Assembly (NCBI RefSeq): GCF_000015805.1
Contig: NC_009073.1
Span: 1,860,001-1,892,000 of the forward strand
Source: Pyrobaculum calidifontis JCM 11548
Lineage (GTDB): Archaea; Thermoproteota; Thermoprotei; Thermoproteales; Thermoproteaceae
Direction: 5' to 3'
Length of the DNA: 32,000 nt
Shown: piece after piece, positions 2,637 to 23,376 of the stretch
Numbering within the stretch: position 1 is the first letter of the stretch
Layout of the letters: each line of letters opens with the position of its first letter
Notes under the pieces: generated by a model
Told to the model about the DNA's origin: nothing
The model's input: only the letters and a program-made list of their open reading frames with translations
The model's database searches: none
Program-made: the position numbers and the translations under genes

Positions 2637-2652
2637 GGCTAAAAGTCGCCCG

Positions 2653-2661: not shown

Positions 2662-2726
2662 TGTGCTCAAGAGAGGTTTCAAAACTTGGCGAAGGCATCT
2701 ATTTATGGATGGGCGAATTTTCTCAT

Positions 2727-4390: not shown

Positions 4391-4998
4391 ATCAAAACCT
4401 GCAATTTTACCTCCTCCTCCCTCGCCCCGTTTTTGTCTATTACCACTAGGTCTATCCCGCCGCCTGAGACTGGGTCCCGCTCCAGCGCCGCCTTGAGTGC
4501 TTGGACGGCGAGCTTCTTTGCGTCTTGGAGCGACATGTCTGGCTTATACGAGGCGTCTATTATGGCAATCGCGAGCTTCGCCCCGGTGCCCAACGCCGCG
4601 TAGTTGTCCTCGATGAGGCTGCCCAGGGGGTCCATGACGATGAGGTGGGGCCCCTCGTCGTCTATGCCGCCGACGAGCACCTCGGCGAAGAACGGCATAA
4701 ACCGCCTAGAGAACATCACCACAGACAGCAACTTGGCCATGGCATGCACCGAGGGCTTCCTCTTCATCTCAAGCTCATACGCCTTTGCGTTTAATTTGAG
4801 GATCTTGGCCAGCGTCTGCATGTCGGCGATGATGCCCGCCGACGCTATGGCCAGCCTGTCGTTTACAATGAACACCTTCTTCCCCGCCGTGCTAAGCGTA
4901 TAGAATCCGTAGGAGACCCTTTTCTCCGCGGCGAGCACTACGCCCTCCTTAGTCTTTATGCCCACCGCTGTGGCGCCTATAGACACCTCCTCTCCCAT
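4387..4998 (-). CDS. psmB: proteasome subunit beta
   Basis: 203 aa. A short propeptide is followed by [20 protein letters not shown] (N-terminal Thr nucleophile context), with a typical archaeal beta-subunit body. Confidence 0.9.
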
Positions 4999-5017
4999 GG
5001 CCTACGCCACGTGCCCC

Positions 5018-5031
5018 ATTTTTAAATATAT
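5018..5031. promoter_or_regulatory. shared, near-palindromic TATA element (ATTTTTAAATATAT) between divergent psmB and rtcA
   Basis: Centred about 27 nt from the psmB ATG (4998) and about 22 nt from the rtcA TTG (5047). Confidence 0.55.
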
Positions 5032-5046
5032 CGCGGCACAACATTT

Positions 5047-6114
5047 TTGACCCACGGCAATACTGGAGGCGTGATTCGCATTGACGGATCGTACGGGGAG
5101 GGAGGCGGCCAAATTCTCCGGACTGCCATTGCACTGTCGGCACTTTTGGGAGTCCCGGTTGAGGTCTTCAATATTAGGGCGAAGCGGGCCAACCCAGGCC
5201 TACAGCCCCAGCACCTCACCGGCGTAAACGCCGCGGCTCTGTTGACAGACGCCGAGCTGGAGGGGGCGGCCAAGGGGTCCACTAGGCTGGTGTTTAAGCC
5301 CAAGACTATTAAGTGCGGCGGCTTTCAGATCGACATCGGCACGGCGGGTAGCATCTCGCTGGTTATTCAGACGTTGACTCCCATTGCCCTCTTCGCACCG
5401 TGCCCCGTGAGGCTGAGCATCACGGGGGGCACCGACGTGGCGTGGGCGCCGCCCATAGACTACATGAGGTTCGTCTTTGCGCCAGTGGTGGGGAGATTTG
5501 GCGGCCGGGTTAAGATCGAGGTGTTGAGGCGGGGGCACTACCCCAAGGGCGGCGGGCGCGTGGAGGTGGAGGTGGCGCCCGTGGACGTGCTAAAGCCCGT
5601 CGACGCGGTGGACTTTGGGAAAGTGTTGAAGATCCGCGGTATTTCGCATGCCGTCAATCTCCCGGCCCACGTGGCGGAGAGGCAGGCAAGGGCCGCGGCC
5701 GAGGCCTTGGCCAAGGAGGGGTACGCCGCCGACATCTCCACCGAGGTGAGAAACGACGGGCTGGGCCCCGGCTCTGGGGTCGTCCTGTGGGCCGAGTCAG
5801 ACGTGGGCAACGTGGTGGGGGGAGACGCCCTGGGCGAGAGGGGGAAGCCCGCGGAGGCCGTGGGGAGGGAGGCCGCCGAGAAGTTGCTCACGGCGCTTAA
5901 GTCGGGCGCCTCTGTGGACTCCCACATGGCCGACATGGCCGTGGTGTATATGGCCCTCGCAGAGGGCGTCAGCCGCATCACTACGCCGGAGCTCACCCTG
6001 CACCTCCAGACGAATATGTACATAGTGGAGCGCTTTCTCCCAGTCAAGTTTAGAGTGGAGAAGCTTGGCCAACGCCACTTGATCGAGGTCAACGGCGTGG
6101 GCCGCCGGCGCTAG
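5047..6114 (+). CDS. rtcA: RNA 3'-terminal phosphate cyclase
   Basis: [24 protein letters not shown].. and the C-terminal VDSHMADM (adenylylated His region) are RtcA hallmarks. The start is TTG at 5047 or GTG at 5071. Confidence 0.9.
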
Positions 6115-7157
6115 GCCCTCCTCCGAATCTCCCGCAGCTTCTCCAAGGCCAGCGGGACGTAGTACTTGTTCAACACGTAGTCCACCACCTCCCTTGTTCC
6201 GTGGCAGTTTAGCGTAGAGATGTGGGCCACTGGGTTGAACAACTCCCTGGCCTTCTCTAGCTCCTCCTGCGTGGCTATGTCCACCTTGTTTACCACAGCG
6301 ACTGTGGGGGCCTCAAAGCTCGTCTTAATCTCGTCGTAGAGCCTCTTCTGCATTTCTAAGCTGTAGCCGCTGTGGGGGGTGGGGTCCACGAGGAAGAGGA
6401 TCACGTTGGCCAAGTGGCGCAGGGCGAGCACGGCCTGCCGCTCAATGGCGTTGCGCTCGGCCAGCGGCCTGTCTAAGAGGCCCGGCGTGTCGACAATCTG
6501 GACCTTGTCCCCCTTTAGGATGATGTGGCCCAGGTGGATCTGCTTAGTTGTGAAGGGGTACTCAGCCACCTCGGGCTCCGCGGTGGACACGCACCTCACG
6601 AAGCTACTCTTCCCCACGTTGGGCGCCCCCGCGACGGCGATTGTGAAGAGCGTGGGGTCCACCGACGGTAGCTTTCTAAGGTAGATCACGACTTCTCTGA
6701 GCTTGTCGAGCTCCGGCGCCAAGTCCCTCAGTAGGTCTATAACTCTGGCTTGGTACATCTTCCTCGCCTTGTAGAGCTGGCTCTTGTCCGCCGCCGTCCT
6801 CACGGCCGTGATAGCCTCCTTGGCTATGGCTTTTATGGCGATGTGGGCGTTGCCCACCTTAGCCACCGCGTGTTTATACACCTGCGCGCCGTATACCACG
6901 TCTATGAGCTCTCTGTAGAAGGGGTGCAACTTGTCGAGAAAGGGCATTCTAAGCGCCATGTCCCTAAGAGTCGAGGCGAGAAGCTTGCCCGAGGTCACTA
7001 TCCGCCTAATCTCCAGCCTCTTCTGTTTCACAAAGGCGGGCTCAGCCGTGGAGCCCCTAGCCTCCTCTCGGGCATAGGCGGTGAGAAACATAGAGATGAG
7101 CTCGTCGGCGGTGTATATGTAGGGCAACTTGGCCTTATCCACGACCTCGAAAGACAC
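6111..7157 (-). CDS. NOG1-family GTP-binding protein (archaeal Nog1-like GTPase)
   Basis: G1 [10 protein letters not shown]3 DTPG and G4 NKVD motifs, preceded by the long helical N-terminal domain typical of NOG1. GTG start. Convergent 4-nt overlap with rtcA. Confidence 0.8.
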
Positions 7158-7176
7158 GAGGCGGATTGGGCACCGC

Positions 7177-7196
7177 TATATAAACGTATTTAAAAG
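7177..7196 (-). promoter_or_regulatory. TATA-rich element (TATATAAACGTATTTAAAAG) upstream of the NOG1-like gene
   Basis: TTTATATA on the minus strand is centred about 23 nt upstream of the GTG at 7157. The second box, ATTTAAAA, could also fire on the plus strand (see findings). Confidence 0.5.
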
Positions 7197-7458
7197 CCCT
7201 TTCCATGCGGTGAACTTCGGTAAGAAGATGTGTCTCAACTACCTCGACCCCGGCGTTCCAAATCCCTTGACCGCTACTTTACGCCCTCCCTTATAGGCTG
7301 GCATGTGTTATCACTCTATCTTACGCCTAACAGCCCTAGATTGGCGTTGGTAAGGTAGATGTATAGTACGCCGTTTTTGTCGTACTTTACCTCAATTCCC
7401 CTGTCCAATGGCTTGCGAACTTCAACACTTCTACTCTTTGTTTAAACGTCGTTGGGGT

Positions 7459-8384
7459 TTATTGCCGAAGTCGCTTTGCTGCGGCCGTGTACCACACCAC
7501 GAATACTACCGTGGCGATTATGATGAGAGGCGCCGTGGTCAAGAGGTAGTACGAATACCCCATTAAGCTTATAAGGACGCCGGCAATCAGCGGAGCGGGG
7601 ATCGAGGTTAAAGACTGGAGCGCCTCTATCGACGAGAATACAGTGAGAGTCTCTGCATCGCCCTTGGAGAAACCTCTTACAAATTTCTGAAAATTCGGGA
7701 TGTAAAGCGACGGCGATAGACTAAAGGCTAGTATGGCAACTCCAACAAGCGCGATTTTACCAACGTCGCTAGGCGCGTAGTATCCAAGCGAAAGAGACAA
7801 GTACCCCAAAGCTATAACGACGCTGGACAGCGCTATGAAGTGCACAGGCTTGTTCACCCTATCCGCCACCGCGCCCATAATGGGCGCGAGAATTAGAAAC
7901 CCAGCTTCAATTGCCGCAGTTGCTATGCCAGCGGGCAGAGGGCCCCCGAGAAGGTCCCAGAGGACGATCACCGAGTACACCGCCACGCCAGTTTCAAAGA
8001 AGGAGGTAACAACATCGTAGACAATTACGGGGTTAGAGACTATGGCCCGCAGTCTGCGGAGAGAGTCTCTTAAGCTACCAGCGACTTCTCCGGGACAACA
8101 ATGTTGACCAGGGATCTATTGAACGGCCTTAAACCCATATACAAGCCCGCAAACAGCGCCACAAATACGACGAGTTCAAGCGTCCCCCTAACGACAGTGA
8201 ACAACGGAAAGAGGACGGCCATGAGCACCGTCATGAGGGGCATCAGCAGGAACGACCTTGGCCCCGCCCTCAGAGACAGCGCAGTAGCCAGAGCCACGAC
8301 AACAAACGTCACCGCTTTCTCAAGCGAGTACGCCACCCCAATGACCTCTTCGCCAACTCCCCTCTCCCTCAACAACGCCGGCAA
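7459..8384 (-). pseudogene. MFS-type transporter remnant (frameshifted, internally deleted)
   Basis: There are two hydrophobic ORFs (8384-8070 and 7986-7459) in different frames. The downstream frame is open from about 8104. The N fragment carries a ..LSLRAGPRSFLL.. loop and the C fragment carries ..GAVADRVNKPVHF.. These resemble the MFS TM2-3 and TM8-9 'G-x-L-x-DR-x-G-R' loops. The segment expected between them (TM5-6) is absent. A TM1-like peptide (FPLVAVGVVVALLMYMALMTL*) sits in yet another frame at 8404-8469. Confidence 0.55.
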
Positions 8385-9284: not shown

Positions 9285-9534
9285 CGCACGTGATGACCTA
9301 GCGCCGCCGCACTGAGACGTGAGGACGGCCATCCTATCTGACCTTTGAAAACGCCCAGTAGTCCTTAGACAAGTTGTAGAGGTCGTAGGTGTAGGCTCCA
9401 GACCCGTGGTGGGCCACTGGCGTACGTGGAGTATTCATTGAAGCCCAGGCGGGCCTCTCTGCCCCAGAGAAAAGCTCTGTCGAGTTTAAATGTTTTCCAG
9501 CTAACAGTACCGAGTGCGGGAAGGGTAAAGAGAA

Positions 9535-9663
9535 GCCCCCTCCCAGCACGCCGGTTTCCCGGGCCCTCGCGGAGCCCAGTACTCCCGAGCGCGGCGCCGG
9601 CCTTAACTTCCGGGTTCTGATGAGACCGGGTGTAGCACCGGCGCCTATGGCCGGGTTAGGGGC
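9535..9663 (-). rRNA. rrf: 5S ribosomal RNA (stand-alone)
   Basis: The minus strand reads GCCCCTAACCCGGCCATAGGCGCCGG...CCCGGTCTCATCAGAACCCGGAAGTTAAGGCCGGCGCCGCG..GGGAGTACTGGG..GCGAGGGCCCGGGAAACCGGCGTGCTGGGAGGGGGC. The conserved 5S loop/helix motifs (GAACCCGGAAGTTAAG, GGGAGTACTGGG, CCGGGAAAC) are present and the 5' and 3' ends pair as helix I. A TATA box lies about 25 nt upstream and a T-rich tract follows. The ends are good to about +/-5 nt. Confidence 0.9.
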
Positions 9664-11880: not shown

Positions 11881-12203
11881 TCGAGGTGGTGGCGTTTTTG
11901 CCCGTGGAATTCGGCGTGTGTAGGACATGCGACGAGATTGCCAACGTGTTCAAGATTAGGCTTAGGGAGTCGTTGGAGTTGCCGGACGACGCGGCGAGGC
12001 TTCTAGCGGCCTTGGCCAAGCTGGGCCCCGTCCCCGTGAGGGTCACGGCGCCGACCACGTTGAGGGGGCTTTGGCTAATGGTGAAGTACCGCACCGGCAA
12101 AATTCCGCTGGTCATCGTCAACGGCAGGTTAATTCACAGCGGGCCCGTGGACGACGTGGAGGGGCTAGTTGAGCGGATAGCGGCGGCGCTACGTGGCCCC
12201 TAG
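11877..12203 (+). CDS. small conserved hypothetical protein, possible thioredoxin-fold (CxxC)
   Basis: 108 aa. It has a CRTC motif near the N-terminus and a ..KIPLVIVNGRLIHSG.. segment reminiscent of glutaredoxin-like proteins. The ATG overlaps the epimerase stop (ATGA). Confidence 0.5.
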   Translation: MIEVVAFLPVEFGVCRTCDEIANVFKIRLRESLELPDDAARLLAALAKLGPVPVRVTAPTTLRGLWLMVKYRTGKIPLVIVNGRLIHSGPVDDVEGLVERIAAALRGP

Positions 12204-13061
12204 CAGAGACCTCAGCCTGCAGACTGTGCACACCTCCCCGCTGGTGGGCTCGCCGCAGATTTTGCACTTCTTCACCGGCTCCTCTTCGGCCGGGCGGAAC
12301 TTCGTGTTGAAGTCCACGACGCCGCGCATGAGCTTGAGGTCGAAGTCTGGGTCCCTCCTCCTGGCGGCCCGTAGCATCTCTACCACCTCGGCGTGCGCCG
12401 CGCCGCAGAGGCCGTATTCGCAACACACCTCGTTGACGGGGAGGCCCTTCGACTTGCAGTACGCCTCGTTTTCCTCCGGCCTTGCAAATATGAGGGGCCT
12501 AATCTTGGTGAGAAGCAGGCCCCGGCCCTCTACCTTGGGCAAAATTTTGAAGTTCCACTGGTGGTTCTGCCCGGCCAAGTTCTTGAAGTAGTAGGCCAAG
12601 AAGTCGTACATGTGGTGGCCCGTGGCCACCTTGGTGGCGCCGAGCTCCCTGGGCACCTTGTTCATTATGTAGCGCTTCACTGCGCCGCACACTGAGCATA
12701 TCGGCCTCCCGCTGGCCTTAGAGGCGGCGAGTATGTCCAAGTAGTCCTTGGCGTAGGCCACGTGGAGCTCGACGCCCAGGGCCTCCGCCTGCCTCTTCAC
12801 GATCTCCTCCAGCTTGGGGGAGTAGCCAAAGCCGAGGTTTATGTGGAGGGCCTTCACCTCGGCGTCTACTCTATACTCCTCGACGTACTCCCTTAGAAGC
12901 GACAACGCGGCGCAGCTGTCCTTCCCGCCCGACACCGCAACGTAGATCACGTCCCCCATTTCCACAAGCCTATACCGGCGGATAGTCTCAAAGACCCGCC
13001 GCCGGTACGACCCCAAGTCAACCCCCTGCTTAGTCACAGCGATGCGGATTTGCACAAGCAC
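12189..13061 (-). CDS. PP-loop ATP pyrophosphatase, TtuA/Ncs6-like tRNA 2-thiolation enzyme
   Basis: PP-loop VAVSGGKDS, central PICSVCGAVKR and ATGHH motifs, and a C-terminal zinc ribbon CKICGEPTSGEVCTVC. Confidence 0.7.
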   Translation of the reverse strand: MLVQIRIAVTKQGVDLGSYRRRVFETIRRYRLVEMGDVIYVAVSGGKDSCAALSLLREYVEEYRVDAEVKALHINLGFGYSPKLEEIVKRQAEALGVELHVAYAKDYLDILAASKASGRPICSVCGAVKRYIMNKVPRELGATKVATGHHMYDFLAYYFKNLAGQNHQWNFKILPKVEGRGLLLTKIRPLIFARPEENEAYCKSKGLPVNEVCCEYGLCGAAHAEVVEMLRAARRRDPDFDLKLMRGVVDFNTKFRPAEEEPVKKCKICGEPTSGEVCTVCRLRSLLGAT

Positions 13062-13102: not shown

Positions 13103-13585
13103 ATGGACCCTGGCATCCGCAGGGGGCTTTGGGGCAGCGTCGTGGCGGCCGTTTTGATAGAGGCCGTGTTGATCCTCTCCCAGGCCTACGGCATTTTCCA
13201 CGCCGCGCCTCTGGCCCTCATGTCGGCGCTTGTGGCCGTGGCGGTGTACGTCTACTTCAACTTCACCAAGGCGCTGAGGAGCGCCGCCTTTACGGCTCTC
13301 GGCCCCCCGGTGATAGGCACAGCCGCAGTGGGAGTGGCGCTTATGTGGACCGGCGCCGGCGTGGGGGCGGCCCTAGTGGCCTTGGCGTACCTCGGGGAGC
13401 CTGTGATGGGCTACTTCGTGTACAAGAGGCTGAGGGAAATAAACGCCGCGTGGGCAACGCTCTTCCTCGCCTCAGCAGCCGCCTACGCCTACACCTTGCC
13501 CACGGTGCTCCTCGGCTACTGGCAGATACCCGCGGCCGCCGACGCGATAAAGCTCGCCGCCCTCATCTACTTCCTCAGGCGCTAG
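13103..13585 (+). CDS. hypothetical integral membrane protein (4-5 TM)
   Basis: 160 aa, almost entirely hydrophobic helices, with good TATA spacing. I recognise no family. Confidence 0.6.
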
Positions 13586-14946
13586 GGCCTCGCCGCCTGT
13601 AGTTGTCTAACCTTTTCTATGTGCTTTGCGAGAGCCTCGGCGCTTGGCTCCACGTCTGGCAGAGCTCCCCGCAGGTATTCGTCGTATGCGGCTAGGTCTA
13701 GGAGGCCGTGGCCCGACATGTTGAAGAGTATTGTGATTGGCCTCCCCTCCCTCTTCGCGGCTAGGGCAAGCTCCACGGCGGCCTTCACCGCGTGGGCAGA
13801 CTCAGGCGCGGGAACCACGCCCTCGGTTCTGGCGAAGAGCACCGCCGCCTCGAAGACCTCCCTCTGGCCGTACGCCACGGCGCCTACCTCCCCCTCTGCC
13901 ACCAGGAGGGAGAGCGTTGGGGCACACCCGTGGTATCTAAGGCCCCCGGCGTGTATGGGAGGCGGCTTGTAGTCGTGGCCTATGGTGAACATCTTGATCA
14001 ACGGGGTCAAGCCCGCCGTGTCGCCGAAGTCGTAGAGGTACTCCCCCTTGGTCAACGTGGGCACGGCCTTGGGCTCCACGGCGAGGAACTTCACATCCTT
14101 CTCCGCCTTGCCCACCTTCTTCTCGTAGTAGAAAGGCCAGAAGAGGCCGGAGAAGGAGCTCCCACCGCCGCAGGCCCCCACCACGTAGTCCGGGTAGTCG
14201 TCGAACTGCCTAATCTGCTCCAGGGCCTCGAGGCCTATCACCGTCTGGTGTATCAGGACGTGGTTTAAGACGGAGCCTAGGACGTACTTTGCGCCGTTTT
14301 TGACCGCATCCTCCACGGCCTCGGATATGGCTATGCCCAGAGACCCTGGGTGGTTGGGGTCCTCTGAGAGGAACCTACGGCCGGCCTCGGTCCTGTCGCT
14401 GGGGCTCGGCACCACCTCGGCCCCCCAGAGCTCCATCAACACCCGCCTATACGGCTTCTGCAAATACGAGGCTCTGACCATGTAGACTGTGGCCTTTACG
14501 CCGAAGAGAGACGCGGCGAAGGCGACGGAGGAGCCCCACTGCCCGGCCCCAGTCTCCGTAGTCACTCTCCCCACGCCCTCCCTTGAGACGTAGTAGAGCT
14601 GGGCCACCGCCGTGTTGGGCTTGTGGGAGCCCGGCGGCGAGACGCCCTCGAACTTGTAGTAAATGCGCGCGGGGGTCTTCAAGGCCTCTTCAAGCCTCCT
14701 GGCCCTCACCAGAGGGGTGGGCCTCCATATCAGGTACACGTCTCTGACCTCCCGCGGTATCGATATCCACCTCTCCTGCGAAAACTCCTGCCTAACCAAC
14801 TCCCTGGCGAAGAGCATCTCGAAGTCCTTGGGCGCAACCGGCTCCCCATTCGGCTTTAGGTACGGAGGAAGCGGCTTGGGGAGGTCGGGCACTATGTTGT
14901 ACCACCGAGTGGGGACCATCCACTCCTCCGTCGACGACCTACGCAT
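13582..14946 (-). CDS. trpB2: tryptophan synthase beta chain-like protein, TrpB2 type
   Basis: [15 protein letters not shown] is the N-terminal extension typical of TrpB2. PLP-lysine context [11 protein letters not shown] and glycine loop [11 protein letters not shown] are present. The track ORF starts at 15036, but TATA spacing favours ATG 14946 ([17 protein letters not shown]). Confidence 0.85.
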
Positions 14947-14963
14947 GGCCGCTAGATGCATAA

Positions 14964-14973
14964 GGTATAAATA
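14964..14973. promoter_or_regulatory. shared TATA (GGTATAAATA) for divergent trpB2 and the 14993 operon
   Basis: Centred about 22 nt from ATG 14946 (minus strand) and about 25 nt from ATG 14993 (plus strand). Confidence 0.55.
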
Positions 14974-14992
14974 CGTTGGCTCAGTGGACTCT

Positions 14993-15514
14993 ATGAGCTT
15001 TAGGAAGACGCTCCTCGAGAGAATAGCCTCGTACATCCCCGGCTACGCTGGGTACAAAAAGAAGGAGGTCAGGCGGGAAACCGACGCCCTGGTGAGGAGG
15101 CACGTCGCCTCTATTCTGGCCCAAGCCGCCCAGTCCCTCGTCCTCTCGCCCGCAGATGCGCGGCTAGTGGCCGCAAACCCCGAGGCGAGGTACCTCTGGG
15201 ACTCCGTAAAGGCGGCGCTGGACAGAGTGACCCAGAGGATAGACAAGGCCCCCCACGGCTACTCCGGCTTCTTCGACTTAGTCAAGGTAGACGAGGCGGC
15301 CCTCGAGGAAGTGTACCGGCACGACCTCGCCTTGGTGGAATACGCCAAGAAGATCGCCGACGCCGCCGCCGCTGTCAAGTCGCTGAGGCCTGGGAGCGAG
15401 GAGTGGGCCAAGGCGCTGAGAGAGCTGTTGTCCCTCGTAGAGGCCCTCGACGCCGAGGTGGACAAGAGGGCCGCAATCCTAAAGGGCATAAGGGAGCCGC
15501 CCCAGCTTAAGTAG
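14993..15514 (+). CDS. hypothetical all-helical soluble protein (173 aa), upstream partner of the SPFH gene
   Basis: It is the in-frame internal ATG of the 14663-15514 track ORF. The upstream part of that ORF is antisense to trpB2. The sequence [37 protein letters not shown]... is rich in A/L/E/R/K with no TM segment. Its stop lies 5 nt before the next ATG. Confidence 0.6.
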
Positions 15515-15519
15515 AGGCC

Positions 15520-16542
15520 ATGCCGCAGGTCATCCAGTGGGTCAACCCCAGGGAGGGGGACATCATCTGGCGGTACCCCGTGGATAGAATTGAGTGGGGG
15601 GCCCAGCTCATAGTCGAGGAGTGGCAGGCGGCGGTCTTCATGCGCGACGGCAAGGTGTACGACGTCTTTCGCGCGGGGCGCCACACGTTGACCACTCTCA
15701 ACCTGCCCCTCCTAACCCAGGCGTTGAGCAGAGTGGCTGGGTTCGACAAATCGCCTTTCACAGCCACAGTGATATTCGTCTCCCTAAAGCAACACCAGCT
15801 CCCGTTCGGAGGCCGGGGGCAGACCGCCGAGCTGGCCCCCATACAGTTCTACGGCACGGCGTGGTTTAGAGTGGCAGACCCAGCCCTCTTCGTCACCCAA
15901 GTGGTAGGCGGGCAGAACGTCTACACCACCGAGGACCTGCAGAAGTTCTTGAGGGGCTACTTCAACGAGCTCCTCATGGCCGAGCTCTCCAAGCAGTCCA
16001 TCTTCACAATATACGCCAACCTGGAACAAGCCAGCTTTGTGGCAAAGGCGGCCATAGACCCCCACTTCCGCCGCATAGGCCTAGAGCTCATCGACCTGAA
16101 ATTTGAAGGACTCGACGTCACAGACCCCGTGTGGAGAGACCGGCTGTTCTACATAAGAGCCACCGGCGTAAACCCAGCCGAGTACCTGCGCATGGAGACT
16201 GTCCAAAAAGCCGCCGCAGAGCTCGGCAAAAGCCCAGGCGCCGCCGCGGGCACAGGCATAGTCCTCATACCGCCCCTCCTATGGCCACAACAGACGGCCC
16301 AACAACCCGCAACCGCACAACCGGCGCCCCAGGCCACCCCACAGCAACAACCGCAAGTAGCCGTATCACAGGGCCAACAACAACAGGGCATTGTCTGCCC
16401 CCAGTGTGGATATGTAAACCCCCCTGGGGCTAAGTTCTGTATAAACTGCGGCTATATGCTGGGGAAGAAGTGCCCCCAGTGCGGCTACGTAAATCCGCCA
16501 GATGCCAAGTTCTGCGCTAACTGCGGCACGAGACTGACTTAG
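15520..16542 (+). CDS. SPFH/band-7 superfamily protein of the YdjI / COG4260 type with a C-terminal double zinc ribbon
   Basis: The N-terminal ..IQWVNPREGDIIWRYP...GAQLIVEEWQAAVFMRDGKVYDVFRAGRHTLTTLNLPLL....SPFTATVIFV.. matches my memory of YdjI-like ('virion core protein'-type) SPFH proteins. The C-terminus carries two CPQCGYVNPP(G/D)AKFC(I/A)NCG ribbons. Confidence 0.8.
   Translation: MPQVIQWVNPREGDIIWRYPVDRIEWGAQLIVEEWQAAVFMRDGKVYDVFRAGRHTLTTLNLPLLTQALSRVAGFDKSPFTATVIFVSLKQHQLPFGGRGQTAELAPIQFYGTAWFRVADPALFVTQVVGGQNVYTTEDLQKFLRGYFNELLMAELSKQSIFTIYANLEQASFVAKAAIDPHFRRIGLELIDLKFEGLDVTDPVWRDRLFYIRATGVNPAEYLRMETVQKAAAELGKSPGAAAGTGIVLIPPLLWPQQTAQQPATAQPAPQATPQQQPQVAVSQGQQQQGIVCPQCGYVNPPGAKFCINCGYMLGKKCPQCGYVNPPDAKFCANCGTRLT
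16396..16527 (+). repeat. tandem duplication (75-nt period) encoding two zinc-ribbon modules
   Basis: 16396-16452 (TGCCCCCAGTGTGGATATGTAAACCCCCCTGGGGCTAAGTTCTGTATAAACTGCGGC) versus 16471-16527 (TGCCCCCAGTGCGGCTACGTAAATCCGCCAGATGCCAAGTTCTGCGCTAACTGCGGC). Confidence 0.85.
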
Positions 16543-16726
16543 CTAGTTACGATAAGAGGTGGTACGACGGTGCTACGTGCAAAACCAGTCAGTCCCACCC
16601 CTATGGCGGTTCTCCCCTCACAGTGTCGTCCAACCACTGCGTCTATTGGCGCAATGCATACCTCTATAGCGACCAGCGGCATGGGTCTAGGCCCTGTGCT
16701 CTATGCCGATTAGAGGTGCATTCGCC

Positions 16727-18880
16727 ATGCGGAGTACTCTAATAGTGATACTACTGGCGTGGCTGGCCTTAGCCAAAGGCATAGGCGTTGTAATCTACGA
16801 AGTAGAAATAAGCGGTGAGCTTGCAGAAGACATCTATGGGCGAGGCGTCGAAGTAGTGGGCGTCGGACCGCTACCCCTCTTCGTGGCGCCTGCCGGCGAA
16901 GACTATGCGGTTTTTGCGTTCACTGGCAACGTCACCCGCGTCAAATTCTTCAACATGTCTAGAGCCTACGTCGTAGTTCCCCGCGGCCCTCCGCCCGAGA
17001 CGCCGGGCGACTTCTACCTAGAAACTCCCCAAGGAAGGTACCCCCTCCGCTTCCGAAGCGGGGGGCCAGTGCTGGCCATCGTCGACTCGCTGGAGAGCCT
17101 TGAAAAAGTGCTCGCAGAGATGGGCTATGTGCCGCAAAGGGGCGGCAGGGCGAGGCTAGTAGGGGGAAGCCAGCAAGGCCGGCAACCCGAGCCCCTGCCA
17201 GAGCCTCTGGCCGCTTCGGTGGGTAGCACTGTGTACCCACTAGGGGGCGTCTACTTTAGAAATGTCAACGCAAAAGTGGGCGTAGTGGAGGTACAGCCGC
17301 ACGGAGACATCCAAGTTTGTTCGAACGTGAGAAACGTGGCGTATGTGGGGTTAGACGTAAATCAGCTCCTCTTAGGTTACGTCGCAGTGAACGGCACAGT
17401 GCAAGGCAACATAGTTGTACAAATCTACAAGGTCAACTCTGATGGAACATGTAGCAAGATAGGCGAGGAGAAGTACCCCCTCTATGCTGTTAGGTCGATG
17501 TACTACACTGTGGCCGGCGTAAACCCTACCTCGTCGCAAAACACGCAGATAGGCGTGAAAGTAATCTTGAACATTACGTCTGTAAGCGGCTCGCCTGTGG
17601 TGAAGGTGCAGGGAATGGCTGAGTACATTAGAACGGTGCATCACGGCTTTGAGGTGTCCGACTACTCTGTAGAGGTCGCGTGGGGCGACTTCGCCGGTAG
17701 CCGAAGTCCCATATACGTAGGGGCCAGGGTCTCAAGCATTTTGCTAGGCCCCTACATGATGCCTGACGGCGTGTTGCAAGACGGGACAAGATCTCTAAGC
17801 GTTGTAATTGAGGCCGACCCCGTAAACGGAGCTTGCCAGACTCTGTACTGGAGGCTTTACATAAACGGCTACAGCTACGAATACGGCTCGTCCACAGGAG
17901 TCCAGCTCTCGGGAACGTGTAGATACAGCGTGCAAATCTCCGGCGGATTTCCACTGCTTGCGGTTAGACACGCCAAGACTCTGACAGAGGATCTCATGTA
18001 TCAACTGAGGATCTCGTACAACGACGGAAGCGCGCCCTTTGTTAGATACTACTGGCTCAATCCCCACACCCCACTGAGAGGGTCTAGGTGGGCCGAGGTG
18101 TGGAAATCAACGCCGAATAGTCAAGGCAAAATACCTGAAATATGGCAAGAGCCACACCTCCTCACCCAGTTGCAGTTGCTGGGAATGTACGGCGGCTGGG
18201 GCGGCTCCGACGCGACTAGCAAGCTACGGGTACACGGCCTTGTGAGTATTTTTGCAGACAGTCTTTCGCGGGGGCCGGCCATTGTCATGTATGTAACGGG
18301 AAGGGTGCTCCAGCCCTCCGGCGCCACATCGCCCGTGGGCTACTGGGAGGTGCGCCTCAGGTTCCCAATCCCAGTCTCAACTGGGGCCCCTATCTACGCA
18401 GCCTACGTGGGAGATTCGAGGTTTGAAGAGCTTAGCCCGCCTCAGTGGGTGTGGATAGCCAAGATGCTTAAAAAGGCGGTAGACTTCCTAGTGGGAGCCC
18501 TGCAGTTAGACAGGTTCAAGACACTTATACACTCGGTGTTCTCCTACGCCGTGGGCCAGCTCCTAGAGTCGGCAGGCCCCCGCGCCGATGCCGCAAATGT
18601 AGATCCCTACACCTTGAAGCTGTACTACAACGCCGGGTGGGCCAACGACAAGCCGTGGGATACCGTGCTCTACTGGGCCCTCTTTAACTCCGACAAATTT
18701 ACCACATTTACAGTTACATACGTCAAGGTATATCCCATCGAAGCCACGCCAAACATAAACTTAAACCTTAGGCCTTCAAATGCTGAGCGATATTATCCTG
18801 AGGTGGATCACAGTTTTGTAAAACTGTGGGCCTTCAAGAGACTCACCGGGGCCGAGGCGATCTACATATGGCTGAGCTAG
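16727..18880 (+). CDS. large hypothetical secreted/extracellular protein (about 717 aa from ATG 16727; track ORF starts at 16703)
   Basis: Signal-like MRSTLIVILLAWLALAKG, and several N-x-S/T sequons (NVT, NMS, NGT, NIT). I recognise no family. Markedly A/T-richer than the flanks (line 17401-17460 hand count: 24 G+C of 60). Confidence 0.65.
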   Translation: MRSTLIVILLAWLALAKGIGVVIYEVEISGELAEDIYGRGVEVVGVGPLPLFVAPAGEDYAVFAFTGNVTRVKFFNMSRAYVVVPRGPPPETPGDFYLETPQGRYPLRFRSGGPVLAIVDSLESLEKVLAEMGYVPQRGGRARLVGGSQQGRQPEPLPEPLAASVGSTVYPLGGVYFRNVNAKVGVVEVQPHGDIQVCSNVRNVAYVGLDVNQLLLGYVAVNGTVQGNIVVQIYKVNSDGTCSKIGEEKYPLYAVRSMYYTVAGVNPTSSQNTQIGVKVILNITSVSGSPVVKVQGMAEYIRTVHHGFEVSDYSVEVAWGDFAGSRSPIYVGARVSSILLGPYMMPDGVLQDGTRSLSVVIEADPVNGACQTLYWRLYINGYSYEYGSSTGVQLSGTCRYSVQISGGFPLLAVRHAKTLTEDLMYQLRISYNDGSAPFVRYYWLNPHTPLRGSRWAEVWKSTPNSQGKIPEIWQEPHLLTQLQLLGMYGGWGGSDATSKLRVHGLVSIFADSLSRGPAIVMYVTGRVLQPSGATSPVGYWEVRLRFPIPVSTGAPIYAAYVGDSRFEELSPPQWVWIAKMLKKAVDFLVGALQLDRFKTLIHSVFSYAVGQLLESAGPRADAANVDPYTLKLYYNAGWANDKPWDTVLYWALFNSDKFTTFTVTYVKVYPIEATPNINLNLRPSNAERYYPEVDHSFVKLWAFKRLTGAEAIYIWLS

Positions 18881-19401
18881 TCTACAAACTCCTCCTTTTT
18901 TCAGCCATCTGTCTCGCCTCTTTACTCGCCTTCGTAGTCCCTTGGGGGACGCTGGTGCCCTCGCTTTTCGGCCTACTTCTCTTCCTCTGGTCTGCCCTAT
19001 TTGCCTCCTTCTTAGGTGCAAAGGGGCGCCACTACGTCTACCTACTACTTCTCTATACGCCTTTCTTCGCCGCGCCGCTTTACACGGCGGCCATGGCAGT
19101 GTCGCCTCTCTCCTTTCTAGCCGCCGTGATAGCCTTTTTCTACCTGGCGTATAAACGTTTCGGAATACTCCTCGGCGTGGCCTATGTGATTCTAGTGGCC
19201 ATGCTCGGCGGAGTGTATCTCTACCTCATCGACTTAGCAACAGGTGGGCTAGTCGAGAGAGCCACAAAGGAGGGCTTAATGCCAGACGCCATGTGGACTG
19301 TGCCCGCCTTCTTCATACCCGCCGCCGTGGCGACGGTCTTGGCGCACATCTCAGCCGCATTTATCTACAGAGCCGCGGGAATTAAGCCCAGAGAGGAGTG
19401 A
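18868..19401 (+). CDS. hypothetical polytopic membrane protein (177 aa)
   Basis: The internal ATG of the track ORF gives MAELVYKLLLFSAICLASLLAFVV... with 5-6 hydrophobic helices. It overlaps the end of the 725-aa gene by 13 nt, which suggests co-transcription. Confidence 0.6.
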   Translation: MAELVYKLLLFSAICLASLLAFVVPWGTLVPSLFGLLLFLWSALFASFLGAKGRHYVYLLLLYTPFFAAPLYTAAMAVSPLSFLAAVIAFFYLAYKRFGILLGVAYVILVAMLGGVYLYLIDLATGGLVERATKEGLMPDAMWTVPAFFIPAAVATVLAHISAAFIYRAAGIKPREE

Positions 19402-19527
19402 CCTCGTTACAACGTATGTTTAGGGCAAGCTCTTGCAAAAGGAGCCCCGTCTGTTAGCGCCTGCGGGGCATGGGACAGTGCCAGAGTGTCGATAGTTAAC
19501 TTATTTTAGAGTCAAACATTAATCCCC

Positions 19528-19827
19528 ATGGGTGCTGGGGAGGTCGCCGCCGCAGTGGCAACGCTGGCGGTGGGAATTTACTTAATTTTGGCATCTCTAG
19601 GCACAGTGCCCCTGGCCGTGAATTTCCTGCTCGGGCTAGCCGCGGCCACCTTCGGCGTGTCCTACGCCGTAGTAGGTAGGACGAGGGAAGCGGCCTTTTG
19701 GGGAGGGCTCTTGCTAATTGTTGGCGTAGCCCTCATCTACGGCGGCGGTGCGTCGCCCCTCCTCGTAGTCGGCGTAGTGCTGGTCTTCGCCTCGCTGGTT
19801 GCCCTGCTAAGTCTCCTGCGCAAGTAA
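19528..19827 (+). CDS. hypothetical small membrane protein (99 aa, 3-4 TM, Gly/Ala/Leu/Val-rich)
   Basis: Hydrophobic ORF with a TATA-like AACTTATTTTAGAG (19498-19511) about 24 nt upstream of the ATG. Confidence 0.55.
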   Translation: MGAGEVAAAVATLAVGIYLILASLGTVPLAVNFLLGLAAATFGVSYAVVGRTREAAFWGGLLLIVGVALIYGGGASPLLVVGVVLVFASLVALLSLLRK

Positions 19828-19921
19828 ACACACTGGCCACAGCAGACACACAATCCAACTTCAAACGAGTAGTCAAACAGTGGTCAAGTCTTACATAGGG
19901 AGTACTAAGAGGTCCCTGTAG

Positions 19922-20767
19922 CTAGAGTCTCTTTTCTGCCTTGTACTTGCCCACTCTCGCCGCGGCTAAGTTGAGCACGAGCCTGGTCGCCGCTCCCAGG
20001 CTGGCGACGCCTCCGCCCACTGCGCCGAGGGCCGGCGGCAGGCCCACATAAGCCGCCGCCATTGCGCCAAGCGCCGCGGCGCCGGCCACAACGGCCGCGG
20101 CCATCCCCAGCGCCTCCGCGCGGCCTCTCGCCGATATTGGGTACTCCATGTAGAGCACTGTGCCGTCTGTGGCGTCGACCGCCGCACTGTACCTCCTTCC
20201 GCGGTAGTCGTAGGCCAAGCGCCAGATGGGGTAATAGACGAGGCCCTCGAGGCGCCACTCAACGCCTATCTTCACCTTGAAGACCTGGGCGTATGCCCTG
20301 GCCTCTTCCACCACCTCTTGAAGCGAGGTGAAGGCGGCCTCTGGGTCTAGGTCCGGCGAGTGGAAGACTCCGACTCTCTCTAGGGTGGGCTTGAATGGGG
20401 TGCGCCACCTCGCGGGGAATCTAAAGCCCGTCGGGAGGGGGACTGGGGGGCTAGAGGTGGCTAGGGCTGTGGCGTATGTGGCAAGTTGGTCGAGAGGTGG
20501 GAAAGACACGTAGTAGAGGTAGAGGGGGAGGAAGTGTAGCTCTGCCTCCACTGGGGATGCGGCGGGGAGGTCCTCGGGGGCCGCCGTGGGTCTAAAGTTT
20601 AGCACAGCCTTAAACGCCGCGGTCTTGTCCACCGCGGGCTTGAAGATGTAGACGTTTTCATAGGTCTTTCCCTCGCTCAGCGCTGTGCCGCAGTATGGAC
20701 ACACGTAGAATCTGCGCCCGGGCGGCGCCTCGTACTTAGCGCCGCAGAAGGGGCACTGGATAATCAC
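19922..20767 (-). CDS. zinc-ribbon protein with C-terminal Gly/Ala-rich membrane anchor (paralog B, 281 aa)
   Basis: The GTG start overlaps the upstream stop (GTGA). The N-terminus (M/V)IIQCPFCGAKYEAPPGRRFYVCPYCG is a CxxC-x17-CxxC ribbon. It shares the motifs LHFLPLYLYYV and YYPIWRLAYDYRGRRYSAAVDATDGTVLYMEYP with the upstream gene. The C-terminal ~60 aa are G/A-rich hydrophobic. The upstream part of the 372-aa track ORF overlaps the previous gene and is R/G-rich. Confidence 0.7.
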   Translation of the reverse strand: MIIQCPFCGAKYEAPPGRRFYVCPYCGTALSEGKTYENVYIFKPAVDKTAAFKAVLNFRPTAAPEDLPAASPVEAELHFLPLYLYYVSFPPLDQLATYATALATSSPPVPLPTGFRFPARWRTPFKPTLERVGVFHSPDLDPEAAFTSLQEVVEEARAYAQVFKVKIGVEWRLEGLVYYPIWRLAYDYRGRRYSAAVDATDGTVLYMEYPISARGRAEALGMAAAVVAGAAALGAMAAAYVGLPPALGAVGGGVASLGAATRLVLNLAAARVGKYKAEKRL

Positions 20768-21783
20768 GTCTCTACCCTCCTGCTCTTCAAAAGGCCCCCA
20801 GCCGCGAGGTACGCAGCGGCCGCGCCGCCGACCAGCGCCGCGGCTCCAAACAGTGGGTCTGCCGCAACTGCTACCGCCGCGCCCAGTCCCCCGAGTAGGC
20901 CGGCCGCCGCGGCGGCGCCCACGACGCTTATCGCCCTGTTTTCCACGAAGGAGGGCTCCTCGGCCACTACCACGGCGCCGTCCCACCCGGCGGAGTAGTA
21001 GCTGTAGTGAGACCCCTTGTAGAAGTACGGCACAATCCACATGGGCAAGTAGGTGAGCGGCGACACGGCGAGCTTCTCCACTGTGTAGTCCACGGCCTTG
21101 TCCACCACGCTCGTGGCGGCGGCGATGACGCCCAGCATAGCCCTGGCTCTCTCAGAGGCGTCGCTGTCCACGGCGGCCAAGAGCTTGGGGACGAGGGCGC
21201 GCACCGCCTTGGCCTTGGCCTGCTCCTCTGTAAACTCGCCCGCAAGAAAGGCGGAGGCAGTGGCGGCCTCCTTCGCCACCTCGGGCAGAGGCTTGGGCTC
21301 CGGCGCAGTCTTGAAGAAGTGGTCCACTAGCTTGTCCACGGAGAGGCCCCATGCAGACCTCCTCGCAAGCACGGCCACCACGTCGCTAAGCCGCACGGCG
21401 CCCTCCACGTCGACGGTCCTAGTCACCACCCGCGTCTGAGGCCTCCCTCCTACGTACACCGTCTTGGTGTAGGTCACGACTACGCGCGCTTTGTACACTG
21501 CGGACATTGCCACGTCCACTAGGTAGAAGGGCAGGTAGAGGAGCGTGGGGGCGGCGAAGTTTATGTCCCGCATCCGCCTGCCGAGGTTGAAGTCCCTCTT
21601 CGTCCTCTCCACGGCGCGTCTAATGACCTCGGAGGCCGAGAGCGTGGGCACGGCCAGCGCCCTCCCGGCGGAGCCGTCAAGAAAGTTGGGCTGGCCGCAG
21701 TACCTACACACGACTACCACCGAGTCAGGCGTCACGTCAAGCGGCGCGCCGCAGTACCGGCACCGCAACTCCACATACCCCAC
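20764..21783 (-). CDS. zinc-ribbon protein with C-terminal Gly/Ala-rich membrane anchor (paralog A, 339 aa)
   Basis: N-terminal CRYCGAPLDVTPDSVVVVCRYCG ribbon, LLYLPFYLVDV and TYLPMWIVPYFYKGSHYSYYSAGWDGAVVVAEEP motifs, and G/A-rich C-terminal TM segments. A TATA (GATATAAAAAATT, 21801-21813) lies about 23 nt upstream of the GTG start. Confidence 0.7.
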   Translation of the reverse strand: MGYVELRCRYCGAPLDVTPDSVVVVCRYCGQPNFLDGSAGRALAVPTLSASEVIRRAVERTKRDFNLGRRMRDINFAAPTLLYLPFYLVDVAMSAVYKARVVVTYTKTVYVGGRPQTRVVTRTVDVEGAVRLSDVVAVLARRSAWGLSVDKLVDHFFKTAPEPKPLPEVAKEAATASAFLAGEFTEEQAKAKAVRALVPKLLAAVDSDASERARAMLGVIAAATSVVDKAVDYTVEKLAVSPLTYLPMWIVPYFYKGSHYSYYSAGWDGAVVVAEEPSFVENRAISVVGAAAAAGLLGGLGAAVAVAADPLFGAAALVGGAAAAYLAAGGLLKSRRVET

Positions 21784-21822
21784 GGAGGCCCAGTGGCTGA
21801 GATATAAAAAATTGGGCCGCCG

Positions 21823-22014
21823 TTATGTGTCTCGGCGCGGGCCCCCTGCCTTAAGCAACCTCTCCGCCCGCTTTCGGACTAACTCCCGCCAGGCAAGCTT
21901 GGCTTCCTCAAACCTATCCCACACGGCGGCCATCCTCCTCCTAAGCTCCTCCACCCTCTCCAACGTCTCTTCAACCTCCACGTCAGAGACGTTCTCTTCT
22001 GCCTCCACAGCCAA
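21823..22014 (-). CDS. small acidic/basic coiled-coil protein (about 61-63 aa)
   Basis: ..EETLERVEELRRRMAAVWDRFEEAKLAWRELVRKRAERLL.. It is heptad-like, on the same strand and immediately upstream of the zinc-ribbon pair. A TATA-like AATTTAA lies at about 22029-22035. Starts with TTG 22014 or GTG 22008. Confidence 0.4.
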   Translation of the reverse strand: MAVEAEENVSDVEVEETLERVEELRRRMAAVWDRFEEAKLAWRELVRKRAERLLKAGGPRRDT

Positions 22015-22467: not shown

Positions 22468-23216
22468 TACGGGCTAGCCTGCTCCATCACAATCTCACTG
22501 GGCAGTACTCTCGCACATTGCACACCCCTTGACCAGCGGCAGTCCACTGTGGCCAAAGCCGCCTGGTCCTCTCGGAGTCCACCAACCCCTTAATCATCTG
22601 TTCTCACTCCAGCCCCCCACCCCCCGGCCACGTCAAGGCTCAGCTTGACGATGTCGGCCAGGGGGTTCTCCTCGCCACGGCGGAACATTGCTCAAAACAG
22701 CCCTCTAATCTCGTCCAAGTAGCCCCCGTGAAGATCGACGTGCCGCTGTCCTTATTGGCCGCCTCCACTTTCTTCAACTCCACCTCTAAGTCAGCCGCTA
22801 CGACCGAGACAGGCGGAAGTACATACTTGCTCTACCGCAACGGCGGAAGATTTGTAATTGGGAAAGAGGAGGCCGCTAGCCTCAGCGAAGTTATATACGG
22901 CCTCGGCAGTGCGGCACAAGAAAACTGACCTATAGACGCTCAAGAGCTAAGCCGACGCGGAGCCGTGGCGAAGTTTCCCCAGCAATGTGGAAAAAGACAA
23001 AAGAGGCGAGGCCTGTGATGTCCACAGGTGATGTGGAAACCACCAAGCGTGTATTTGAGTAGCCAAAATGGCGAGAATTGTCGCGGCGGCAGATCATGGG
23101 CGCGTAGCATTAGGATAAGCCCATACGACAAGTCCAAGGTAGAGGAAATAGCAGATGAGAGCCGTAAGATGAGTGCCCTACTGCCAAAGTACGAAATAGG
23201 AAGAGGCGGAGAAGAG

Positions 23217-23328
23217 TGGTGGGCCGTAGGGGACTCTCAGGGGGTTCCCCCTTTTGAACCCCTGGCTTCCGCGCCGGCGGCTCTACGGGTCTGGAGCCCG
23301 CCGCTCTGCCTGGCTGAGCTAACGGCCC
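23217..23328 (-). tRNA. tRNA-Trp (anticodon CCA) with two putative non-canonical introns; CCA encoded
   Basis: The minus strand reads GGGCCGT TA GCTC AGCCAGGCA GAGC G GCGGG CTCCAGA CCCGT [21 nt = variable loop + ~16-nt insert] AGGGG TTCAAA[~19-nt insert containing GGGGGAACCCCC]T CCCCT ACGGCCC A CCA. The acceptor, D, anticodon and T stems all pair. The 112 nt split into about 74 mature, about 35 inserted and 3 for CCA. Confidence 0.8.
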
Positions 23329-23349
23329 GTACGTGCTATCTTTTTCTGC

Positions 23350-23360
23350 TTAAAAGTTTA
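23350..23360 (-). promoter_or_regulatory. TATA box (AAACTTTTAAG) of tRNA-Trp
   Basis: Centred about 27 nt upstream of the tRNA 5' end (23328), in the 48-nt gap after the SWIM gene stop. Confidence 0.55.
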
Positions 23361-23376
23361 ACTGCCCTATTCGGCG

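Follow-up and report, generated by a model that had tools for sequence, protein, structure and literature searches.

A candidate PspA-independent relative of the Bacillus YdjG-YdjH-YdjI module in Pyrobaculum calidifontis, with a helical putative partner of its SPFH protein

Introduction

SPFH proteins, which can form cup-like oligomers (PMC7619361), include a YdjI (SamI) type that is understood in Bacillus subtilis only, where its members are read as adaptors of PspA. In this bacterium, YdjG and YdjH are needed to bring the soluble YdjI protein to the membrane (PMC8581546; bioRxiv 10.64898/2026.02.06.704340), and in the passages of PMC11237479 that deal with it, YdjG is described as a protein with zinc ribbons, a YpeB-like domain, and a transmembrane (TM) segment. 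Here, a 32,000-nucleotide (nt) stretch of the Pyrobaculum calidifontis JCM 11548 genome (NC_009073.1, positions 1,860,001 to 1,892,000; this whole stretch is called the window) was analyzed, and eight of its open reading frames (ORFs), g1 to g8, located at positions 14993-22014, were compared with the Bacillus genes. Five of them (g1, g2, g5, g7, and g6) appear to form a relative of the Bacillus module that contains neither PspA nor YdjH.

An earlier note on this DNA had taken seven to eight of these genes as one module and as an archaeal counterpart of the Bacillus system. All eight flagged ORFs were found at or near the positions it gave (8/8) and with the features it described, and its remark that the products carry no enzyme signature is borne out, as none of the eight matched an enzyme family in Pfam or NCBIfam. 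The proposed gene count was reduced by the analysis: five genes are conserved together, but g3, g4, and g8 are species-specific.

Results

A YdjI-type SPFH protein and two YdjG homologs

The g2 gene (15520..16542, plus strand) encodes a 340-amino acid (aa) YdjI/SamI-type SPFH protein (Band_7_1) that has a Q/P-rich linker and, at the C terminus, two zinc ribbons. The Pfam matches were Band_7_1 (4.7e-28), Zn_Ribbon_1 (two copies), and DZR (3.6e-13), and BLASTP aligned the protein with Bacillus YdjI over the full length, including linker and ribbon (3e-21). Each ribbon is encoded by one copy of a directly repeated 57-nt unit (16396-16452 and 16471-16527); the starts of the two copies are 75 nt apart with an 18-nt spacer, and the copies share 77% DNA identity. 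Hydropathy analysis detected no TM segment, which marks the protein as soluble. Judged by these matches, g2 is a true member of the YdjI family and a soluble SPFH protein, and the earlier description of it as a YdjI-type protein with two zinc ribbons was correct.

The Bacillus reference used for these comparisons was the pspA-ydjG-ydjH-ydjI locus of Bacillus stercoris (subtilis group), which was located by the published ydjG primer (PMC8581546). Its products matched PspA_IM30, Zn_Ribbon_TF, TPM_phosphatase (YdjH, 1e-23), and Band_7_1 with a zinc ribbon in Pfam.

Two minus-strand genes encode zinc-ribbon membrane proteins. The 339-aa product of g7 (20764..21783) has a zinc ribbon at the N terminus and a two-helix TM hairpin at the C terminus. 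The 281-aa product of g6 (19922..20767) likewise has an N-terminal zinc ribbon, which is combined with a beta-rich YpeB/PepSY-like domain; its C-terminal hydrophobic anchor has a TM segment at residues 217-244. In Pfam, g7 matched a zinc ribbon only, while g6 matched Zn_Ribbon_TF (8e-6) and, weakly, PepSY (0.044). The profile of the g7 family (alignment A2) matched Bacillus YdjG at an hhalign probability of 98.2% (E 6e-14, 261 columns), with an aligned span that runs from the second YdjG zinc ribbon through the shared beta motifs YxPFW and LPxW..Y.Y....Y....G..G; plain tblastn of g7 against the ydjG locus gave 1.5e-4. The direct hhalign comparison of g6 with YdjG reached 64.7% and covered the N-terminal part. 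The domain description of YdjG in the relevant passages of PMC11237479 agrees both with the g7-YdjG alignment and with the weak PepSY match of g6. The AlphaFold2 (AF2) model of g7 (pLDDT 88) contains TM helices at residues 280-307 and 310-332, a long beta-hairpin, and a helical/beta domain, and it had no match among solved structures.

The two proteins are related to each other by BLASTP (2e-5 and 5e-5) and by comparison of the family profiles (hhalign 99.3%, E 1e-20), as had been suggested when they were first noted as zinc-ribbon/TM paralogs. These alignments indicate that g7 and g6 are homologs of Bacillus YdjG and not merely analogues. The start of g6 overlaps the stop of g7 in a GTGA junction, which suggests that the two genes are translationally coupled. 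An assignment of g6 and g7 to the CdvA-like zinc-ribbon families arCOG03733/03734 was judged unlikely; these families, which combine a zinc ribbon, a long coiled coil, and a CdvA-like domain with no TM segment (PMC11188069), were set apart by description only.

The resemblance to the Bacillus locus extends to YdjI and YdjG but not to the other two proteins. No window product matched YdjH/TPM_phosphatase in Pfam, and phmmer with YdjH found none in the window; PspA_IM30 and Snf7 likewise had no Pfam match to any product and no phmmer match in the window. The view of the locus as an archaeal counterpart of the Bacillus module can thus be kept for its YdjI and YdjG homologs, but the window has no PspA and, with no TPM homolog among its products, no counterpart of YdjH.

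Five genes are conserved together

The remaining membrane protein of the set, g5 (19528..19827, plus strand; 99 aa, about 4 TM segments), has homologs directly after the SPFH gene in Thermoproteus (46% identity, 3e-12), in P. islandicum (63% identity, 4e-22), and in P. arsenaticum, and the g5 homologs in other Thermoproteaceae overlap the end of the SPFH gene. When the g5 family was compared with the 4-TM proteins of ~115 aa that are encoded behind the SPFH gene outside the Thermoproteaceae, hhalign gave 82.9% (E 9e-6). This score, which is weakened by the hydrophobic composition of both profiles, is suggestive only of a relationship between g5 and these bacterial-type proteins.

In Thermoproteus (L011, L012), the gene order is g1 (195 aa), the SPFH gene (355 aa), and genes for 98-aa, 342-aa, and 283-aa proteins, all on one strand and with ends that overlap or abut. 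By tblastn, the 98-aa protein is the g5 homolog and the 342-aa and 283-aa proteins are the g7 and g6 homologs. The same arrangement was found in a metagenome locus (L036). In P. islandicum and P. arsenaticum, all five genes lie inside about 6-7 kb, with g5 directly after the SPFH gene and g7-g6 inverted about 2 kb further on; a Zip gene is inserted between g1 and the SPFH gene, and DUF1152 and a 266/288-aa gene follow as further inserts. Two unclassified archaeal loci (L013, L015) carry g1-like, SPFH, g7, and g6 homologs in sequence, and a g6 homolog was found behind the g7 homolog in all archaeal loci examined. Hot-spring metagenome contigs that match the window have the identical gene order. 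Taken together, the comparisons indicate that the conserved set is g1, g2, g5, g7, and g6, that its clustering is far beyond chance, and that the five genes are a single operon in Thermoproteus and still clustered after rearrangement in Pyrobaculum.

The module was also found in Methanomethylicia, Nitrososphaeria, and bacteria, including Acidobacteria. The linkage, whose examination had been proposed earlier, is thus kept in Pyrobaculum, in Thermoproteus, and well beyond. Among the named matches of the word-indexed searches, the Thermoproteales were represented by Pyrobaculum and Thermoproteus, with none from Caldivirga or Vulcanisaeta.

As a separate observation, locus L013 contains a gene of the Snf7/ESCRT-III family (12191-12850; Pfam Snf7 1.3e-6) about 2 kb 3' of the gene that ends the module. 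Other genes, one of them on the opposite strand, lie between, and this was the sole ESCRT-III-family gene seen near any module.

Pairing of g1 with YdjI-type SPFH genes across metagenomes

Scanning metagenomes with the g1 profile yielded 559 confirmed loci, of which the best 80 were analyzed using locally built hidden Markov models; loci with 400 bp or more of sequence 3' of g1, 67 in all, were considered informative. A YdjI-type SPFH gene was located 3' of g1 on the same strand in 60 of the 67, and in 52 the distance was within 200 nt. Most of the exceptions came from Pyrobaculum, on contigs that break off within some 0.4-2.1 kb of g1, and contigs this short would not span Zip and minus-strand inserts of the kind present in P. 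islandicum and P. arsenaticum. These counts mark g1 as a near-obligate upstream partner of YdjI-type SPFH genes in archaea and bacteria. No description of the g1-SPFH dyad was found in the literature searched, including searches for Band_7_1/PF13421/COG4260 and LIMLP_15305.

A YdjG-like gene was present in 17 of the 23 long loci. Outside the Thermoproteaceae, the recurrent order is a YdjG-like gene (~250 aa, no TM segment), g1, the SPFH gene, and a gene for a ~115-aa 4-TM protein; the 250-aa YdjG-like protein matched the g7 profile at 98.8%. At least 7 further loci have a small 4-TM gene behind the SPFH gene. In some loci, a third partner of a different type was observed. A zinc ribbon (ZnR)-Toastrack gene lies between g1 and the SPFH gene in Pyrinomonadaceae (L009), a 766-aa protein with ZnR and two DUF4178 domains is encoded behind the SPFH gene in L092 (5885-8185), and in Methanomethylicia (L007:7003-7599) an Arrestin_N-like protein with a C-terminal zinc ribbon is encoded two genes upstream of g1 and replaces the YdjG-like protein.

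The genes that flank the core are unrelated housekeeping genes. PspA_IM30, Snf7, TPM, and Toastrack were all outside the 25 most frequent Pfam families in the 150 ORFs closest to the g1-SPFH pairs, and phmmer searches of the 80 loci with PspA, Snf7, and YdjH were negative. Peptidase neighbors were sporadic (S41 in L009, TldD in L080, and M48 in 3 of the 150 neighbor ORFs).

Two of these loci have further features. In L007, a 102-aa 4-TM gene lies between the Arrestin_N-ZnR gene and g1. In L009, a complete gas-vesicle cluster (1372-7764; GvpA/J, F/L, G, K, and an ArsA-like ATPase) is divergent from, and adjoins, the g1/ZnR-Toastrack/SPFH operon.

The g1 protein family

The g1 gene (14993..15514, plus strand) encodes a 173-aa soluble protein, predicted to be a helical bundle, with no TM segment by hydropathy. 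Gene callers differ on its start (205 versus 173 aa). A TATA-like sequence, GTATAAATA, lies about 25-30 nt ahead of the ATG, and this box, together with the family alignment, supports a start at 14993. The longest ORF that contains g1 is 14663-15514 (plus strand, 283 aa), and it overlaps the 5' part of a TrpB-like (TrpB2) gene at 13582-15036 (minus strand).

A word-indexed search identified 63 homologs, in Pyrobaculum, Thermoproteus, Methanomethylicia, Nitrososphaeria, and Pyrinomonadaceae, and an exhaustive profile search found 2,133 representative clusters at E<=1e-3 (1,315 at E<=1e-10), nearly all of which are stand-alone proteins of ~170 aa. Fusions among the representatives join g1 to DUF4178 (P0200, P0220) or place a zinc ribbon ahead of it (ZnR-g1, P0109). 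In the family alignment (A1), the invariant positions are concentrated in two Gly/aromatic loops, IPGYxGY and GYSGFFD, and include a few charged residues. NCBIfam returned a single weak sub-threshold match (1e-5), to LIMLP_15305, a family related to g1 that has no function attached. A scan of all 21 alignment members placed g1 in no Pfam family and gave only scattered sub-threshold matches; a possible identity with DUF2383, based on one homolog (P0163) just under the cut-off, did not generalize. On these searches, the g1 family appears to be new to the literature, and it is large and widespread in archaea and bacteria, and it has no Pfam model.

The AF2 model of g1 is all-helical (pLDDT 84, pTM 0.77) and has four segments of about 29-32 residues (18-48, 53-84, 101-129, and 136-165). 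Ahead of these is a short N-terminal helix of lower AF2 confidence, and because its pLDDT is low, the model suggests that this helix is not packed against the bundle. The helix is strongly amphipathic, with a hydrophobic moment (muH) of 0.6-0.75 in most alignment members, which is comparable to the value for the N-terminal helix of Bacillus PspA (0.53).

At the other end of the protein, the g1 of the window terminates in ...REPPQLK (15490-15514) without a cationic amphipathic tail. Orthologs from P. islandicum, P. arsenaticum, and Thermoproteus have such C-terminal tails (GLLDRLFKRT, GILGRLLGR, and GIFDKLFKRW), with muH up to 0.97. Such a tail resembles the membrane-targeting sequence of MinD.

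The earlier note had expected a PspA/ESCRT-III-like component, and none was detected by hhalign, by PDB sequence search, or by Foldseek of g1. The g1 profile gave an hhalign probability of 0.15% against Bacillus PspA and 0.24% against archaeal Snf7, and g1 was rejected as a member of either group. Against PDB sequences, the profile found designed coiled coils and nucleoporins only. The best E value of Foldseek against the PDB was no better than 0.09, and the 50 best matches listed were generic helical bundles, with no PspA, Vipp1, or ESCRT-III among them. The long alpha1-alpha2 hairpin with alpha3-alpha5 that characterizes the ESCRT-III fold is not present in the AF2 model of g1.

A defensive or viral origin of the module was also considered and rejected. 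PADLOC models of defense systems matched none of the eight products, PHROGs gave two marginal zinc-ribbon/helical matches only (to g6 and g8), and the g1 motif was absent across 2.9 million viral contigs.

Species-specific genes and surroundings of the module

The three other genes appear to be passengers. The product of g3 (16703..18880, plus strand) is a 725-aa ORFan whose hydropathy profile has an N-terminal hydrophobic segment only, which is a predicted signal or anchor; it belongs to no family in Pfam, NCBIfam, PHROGs, or PADLOC, and among 5.8e9 proteins it has two clusters, one of P. calidifontis at 100% and one of a 91% relative. The g4 gene (18868..19401, plus strand; 177 aa, about 5 TM segments) overlaps the end of g3 by 13 nt, and tblastn matched it only in P. 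calidifontis-type contigs (L001-L004 and L006, 100% identity). The g3 gene is not in the P. islandicum, P. arsenaticum, or Thermoproteus loci, and both genes were rejected as module members, g3 as an ORFan with 2 clusters and both as missing from other Pyrobaculum/Thermoproteus loci. The comparison of loci indicates that the g3-g4 pair was inserted between g2 and g5 in this species only; flanking repeats were looked for as insertion scars, and none were found.

The g8 gene (21823..22014, minus strand) encodes a highly charged, helical 63-aa protein that tblastn matched only in P. calidifontis-type contigs (L001-L004). In P. islandicum and P. arsenaticum, the place 5' of g7 is taken by a divergent aminotransferase gene, and g8 is missing there as it is in Thermoproteus; it is probably an unconserved small ORF outside the module. 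The small gene 3' of the Thermoproteus SPFH gene was considered as a g8 homolog, and tblastn identified it as the g5 homolog instead. A module of seven to eight genes was therefore an over-count, because homologs of g3, g4, and g8 are limited to contigs that match the window. Pfam had no match of any kind for g1, g3, g4, g5, and g8, and no window product belongs to an NfeD or peptidase family in Pfam or NCBIfam.

TATA-like boxes were found about 25-30 nt 5' of g1, g5, and g7, and a weaker box lies 5' of g8. The g5 gene has its own box about 25 nt upstream, the box of g7 (TTTTTTATATC, coding strand) is within the 39-nt gap to g8, and g2 starts 5 nt past the g1 stop. Because of these boxes and the gene spacing, the present-day transcription units are suggested to be g1-g2, g3-g4, g5, g7-g6, and g8.

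Elsewhere in the window, Rfam identified PyrR208, a Pyrobaculum H/ACA-type small RNA (9408-9466; 74.9 bits), which adjoins a 5S rRNA gene (9538-9658; 73.1 bits); both are on the minus strand and above the Rfam gathering scores, and they are in keeping with DNA from Pyrobaculum. Positions 22468-23376, between a Nitro_FeMo-Co-family gene and the next minus-strand gene, are ~900 nt without a convincing ORF. A sub-threshold tRNA-like match is located there (23239-23321, minus strand; 23.1 bits versus a gathering score of 29), and ARAGORN called no tRNA. This match could be an intron-containing tRNA, a degenerate tRNA, or another noncoding RNA.

Discussion

A proposed role at the cytoplasmic membrane face

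The explanation that we favor, and that we hold to be somewhat more probable than its contrary, is that g1, g2, g5, g7, and g6 form a PspA-independent, YdjH-less relative of Bacillus YdjG-YdjH-YdjI (SamGHI) that acts at the cytoplasmic face of the membrane. The g7/g6 pair, which is probably a hetero-oligomer because of the apparent translational coupling, would join the small 4-TM protein g5 in a membrane receptor. This receptor would dock oligomeric g2 through zinc-ribbon and beta-domain contacts. The g1 protein would bind g2 and touch the bilayer through its N-terminal helix, which is amphipathic and conserved; several Pyrobaculum/Thermoproteus members have, in addition, a cationic amphipathic tail at the C terminus that the g1 of the window lacks. 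The g1 protein may then serve as an effector or regulator in place of YdjH/PspA, and the likely output would be that stressed membrane patches are sensed and stabilized. What appears to be novel is the combination, namely a module without PspA and YdjH, with a duplicated YdjG, and with g1 and a 4-TM protein added, while the SPFH and YdjG families are known.

Several points weigh against this explanation. The protein-protein contacts and the membrane binding of g1 are predictions throughout. In Bacillus, YdjH is reported to be the direct anchor for YdjI/PspA, and the docking logic may therefore differ in a module without YdjH. The five genes are now in at least three transcription units in Pyrobaculum and may not be co-expressed, and the link between g5 and the bacterial-type 4-TM proteins is an 83% hhalign match between hydrophobic profiles. 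There are also loci in which the set is broken: L014 has a g7/g6 pair with no SPFH gene in 8 kb upstream or in the 2.4 kb of contig downstream, and L079 has a g1 without an SPFH gene.

A bolder form of the proposal would be that g1 founds a widespread and hitherto unrecognized family of peripheral-membrane effectors (at least 2,000 representative clusters in archaea and bacteria) that are recruited by YdjI-type SPFH scaffolds and, without the ESCRT-III fold, seal or stabilize membranes as PspA does in Firmicutes. We regard this as unlikely; if true, it would represent a second, non-homologous solution for SPFH-coupled membrane repair.

Alternative explanations

The original proposal was that all seven to eight genes are an archaeal membrane-remodeling machine with unrecognized PspA/ESCRT-III-like parts, in which g1 is a cryptic PspA and the absence of Cdv/FtsZ is offset. 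Several points speak for it: the homology to YdjI and YdjG is genuine, g1 resembles PspA in being helical with an amphipathic helix at the N terminus, a Snf7-like gene lies within 3 kb of the module in one unclassified archaeon (L013), and FtsZ and ESCRT-III/Vps4 are missing from the Thermoproteales, as the earlier note had stated (PMC11188069). However, composition and homology of the module largely refute it, and we consider it very unlikely. The hhalign values of g1 (0.15% to PspA, 0.24% to Snf7) come with no support from PDB sequences or from the listed Foldseek matches, and the model has four helical segments of ~29-32 residues and no long hairpin. In addition, g3, g4, and g8 are species-specific, and PspA, Snf7, and YdjH were unmatched by phmmer in the 80 loci. 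An answer to missing Cdv/FtsZ that is peculiar to the Thermoproteales is also contradicted, because the module is present in Methanomethylicia, Nitrososphaeria, and bacteria, the Acidobacteria among them; in the Thermoproteales, CdvA-like proteins are present and are candidates for division (PMC11188069). The opposite extreme, a chance neighborhood of unrelated hypothetical membrane genes, fits the locus in that the eight genes are spread over both strands and at least five putative transcription units, and for the three unconserved genes (g3, g4, and g8) this reading holds. For g1, g2, g5, g6, and g7 it is refuted by the retention of the five-gene set through rearrangements, by the single operon of Thermoproteus, and by g1-SPFH adjacency in 60/67 loci, so that as an account of the locus it is hardly credible.

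SPFH proteins commonly form cages around proteases. The module could by analogy be an SPFH cage that regulates a membrane protease or quality control in the style of HflK/C-FtsH or stomatin-NfeD, with g1 and the YdjG-like proteins as adaptors and the client encoded elsewhere, and the peptidases encoded by some neighbors (S41 in L009, TldD in L080, and M48 in 3/150) would be in line with this. We find this improbable, as these neighbors are sporadic, the conserved core has no protease or NfeD domain, and g2 is without the TM anchor that is typical for the HflK/C and stomatin types. YdjI, the closest characterized relative, works with PspA and stress signaling and not with a protease (PMC8581546). 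Signaling is the theme of the remaining alternative, in which the YdjG-like zinc-ribbon proteins would signal membrane stress and SPFH/g1 would restrain them, as proposed for SamG-SamH versus SamI. Loss of SamI in B. subtilis results in constitutive SamG/SamH-dependent stress signaling, and PspA is dispensable for the phenotype (bioRxiv 10.64898/2026.02.06.704340). Zinc ribbons, moreover, occur in every partner class (YdjG-like, SPFH, ZnR-g1 P0109, ZnR-Toastrack, Arrestin_N-ZnR, and ZnR-DUF4178), although the module has no conserved transcription factor or kinase. As a distinct explanation it seems doubtful to about the same degree as the protease cage, and it overlaps with the favored reading of a SamGHI relative to an extent that sequence analysis cannot separate.

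Significance

The pairing of YdjG and YdjI is much older and wider than its Bacillus context; besides many metagenomic lineages, it is found in Thermoproteaceae, Methanomethylicia, Nitrososphaeria, and Acidobacteria. In those loci examined that contain g1, the pairing is accompanied by g1 and a small 4-TM protein, and neither PspA nor YdjH was found. Thousands of genes now labeled "hypothetical" thereby gain a handle for annotation, and a minimal conserved set is delimited for biochemistry. It also strikes one attractive, unsupported candidate from the search for the division or remodeling machinery of the Thermoproteales.

Comparison with known systems

Like stomatin/NfeD and HflK/C-FtsH operons, the locus co-encodes an SPFH scaffold with small membrane proteins; in contrast to them, the window has no NfeD and no protease, and g2 has no membrane anchor of its own. 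A second comparison is with PspA-free neighborhoods of phage shock protein (PSP) partners, for which Toastrack, DUF4178, and Band-7 are reported in the relevant passages of Ravi et al. 2024 (PMC11237479); DUF4178 is described there as a beta-rich domain found in PspA-CesT/Tir-polyamine operons. Toastrack (L009) and DUF4178 (the g1 fusions and L092) likewise occur near g1, whereas the window itself has neither domain. The passages of PMC11237479 on band-7, YdjG, ZnR, and DUF4178 contain no g1 family and no g1-SPFH dyad.

With PspA, Vipp1, and ESCRT-III, g1 shares its small size, its all-helical and apparently cytoplasmic nature, its amphipathic N-terminal helix, and co-encoding with an SPFH protein, as for PspA in B. 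subtilis. It differs from them in that no profile or fold similarity was detected and in that four segments of ~30 residues are predicted instead of a long alpha1-alpha2 hairpin; the IPGYxGY and GYSGFFD loops were not seen in the Bacillus PspA compared, with which no alignment to g1 was obtained.

The remaining comparison is with the Bacillus pspA-samGHI locus. In both systems, the SPFH protein (g2/YdjI) is soluble, belongs to Band_7_1, and has a low-complexity linker as well as a C-terminal zinc ribbon. Encoded with it is a YdjG-type protein in which an N-terminal zinc ribbon and a beta-rich, YpeB-like domain are combined with a TM anchor at the C terminus. The window module, however, has no PspA and no TPM-domain YdjH, it has two diverged YdjG paralogs with one zinc ribbon each where YdjG has two, and it adds the helical protein g1 and the small 4-TM protein g5. 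In the widespread form found outside the Thermoproteaceae, the YdjG-like protein is without a TM segment, and g1 stands at the position of ydjH, directly before the SPFH gene.

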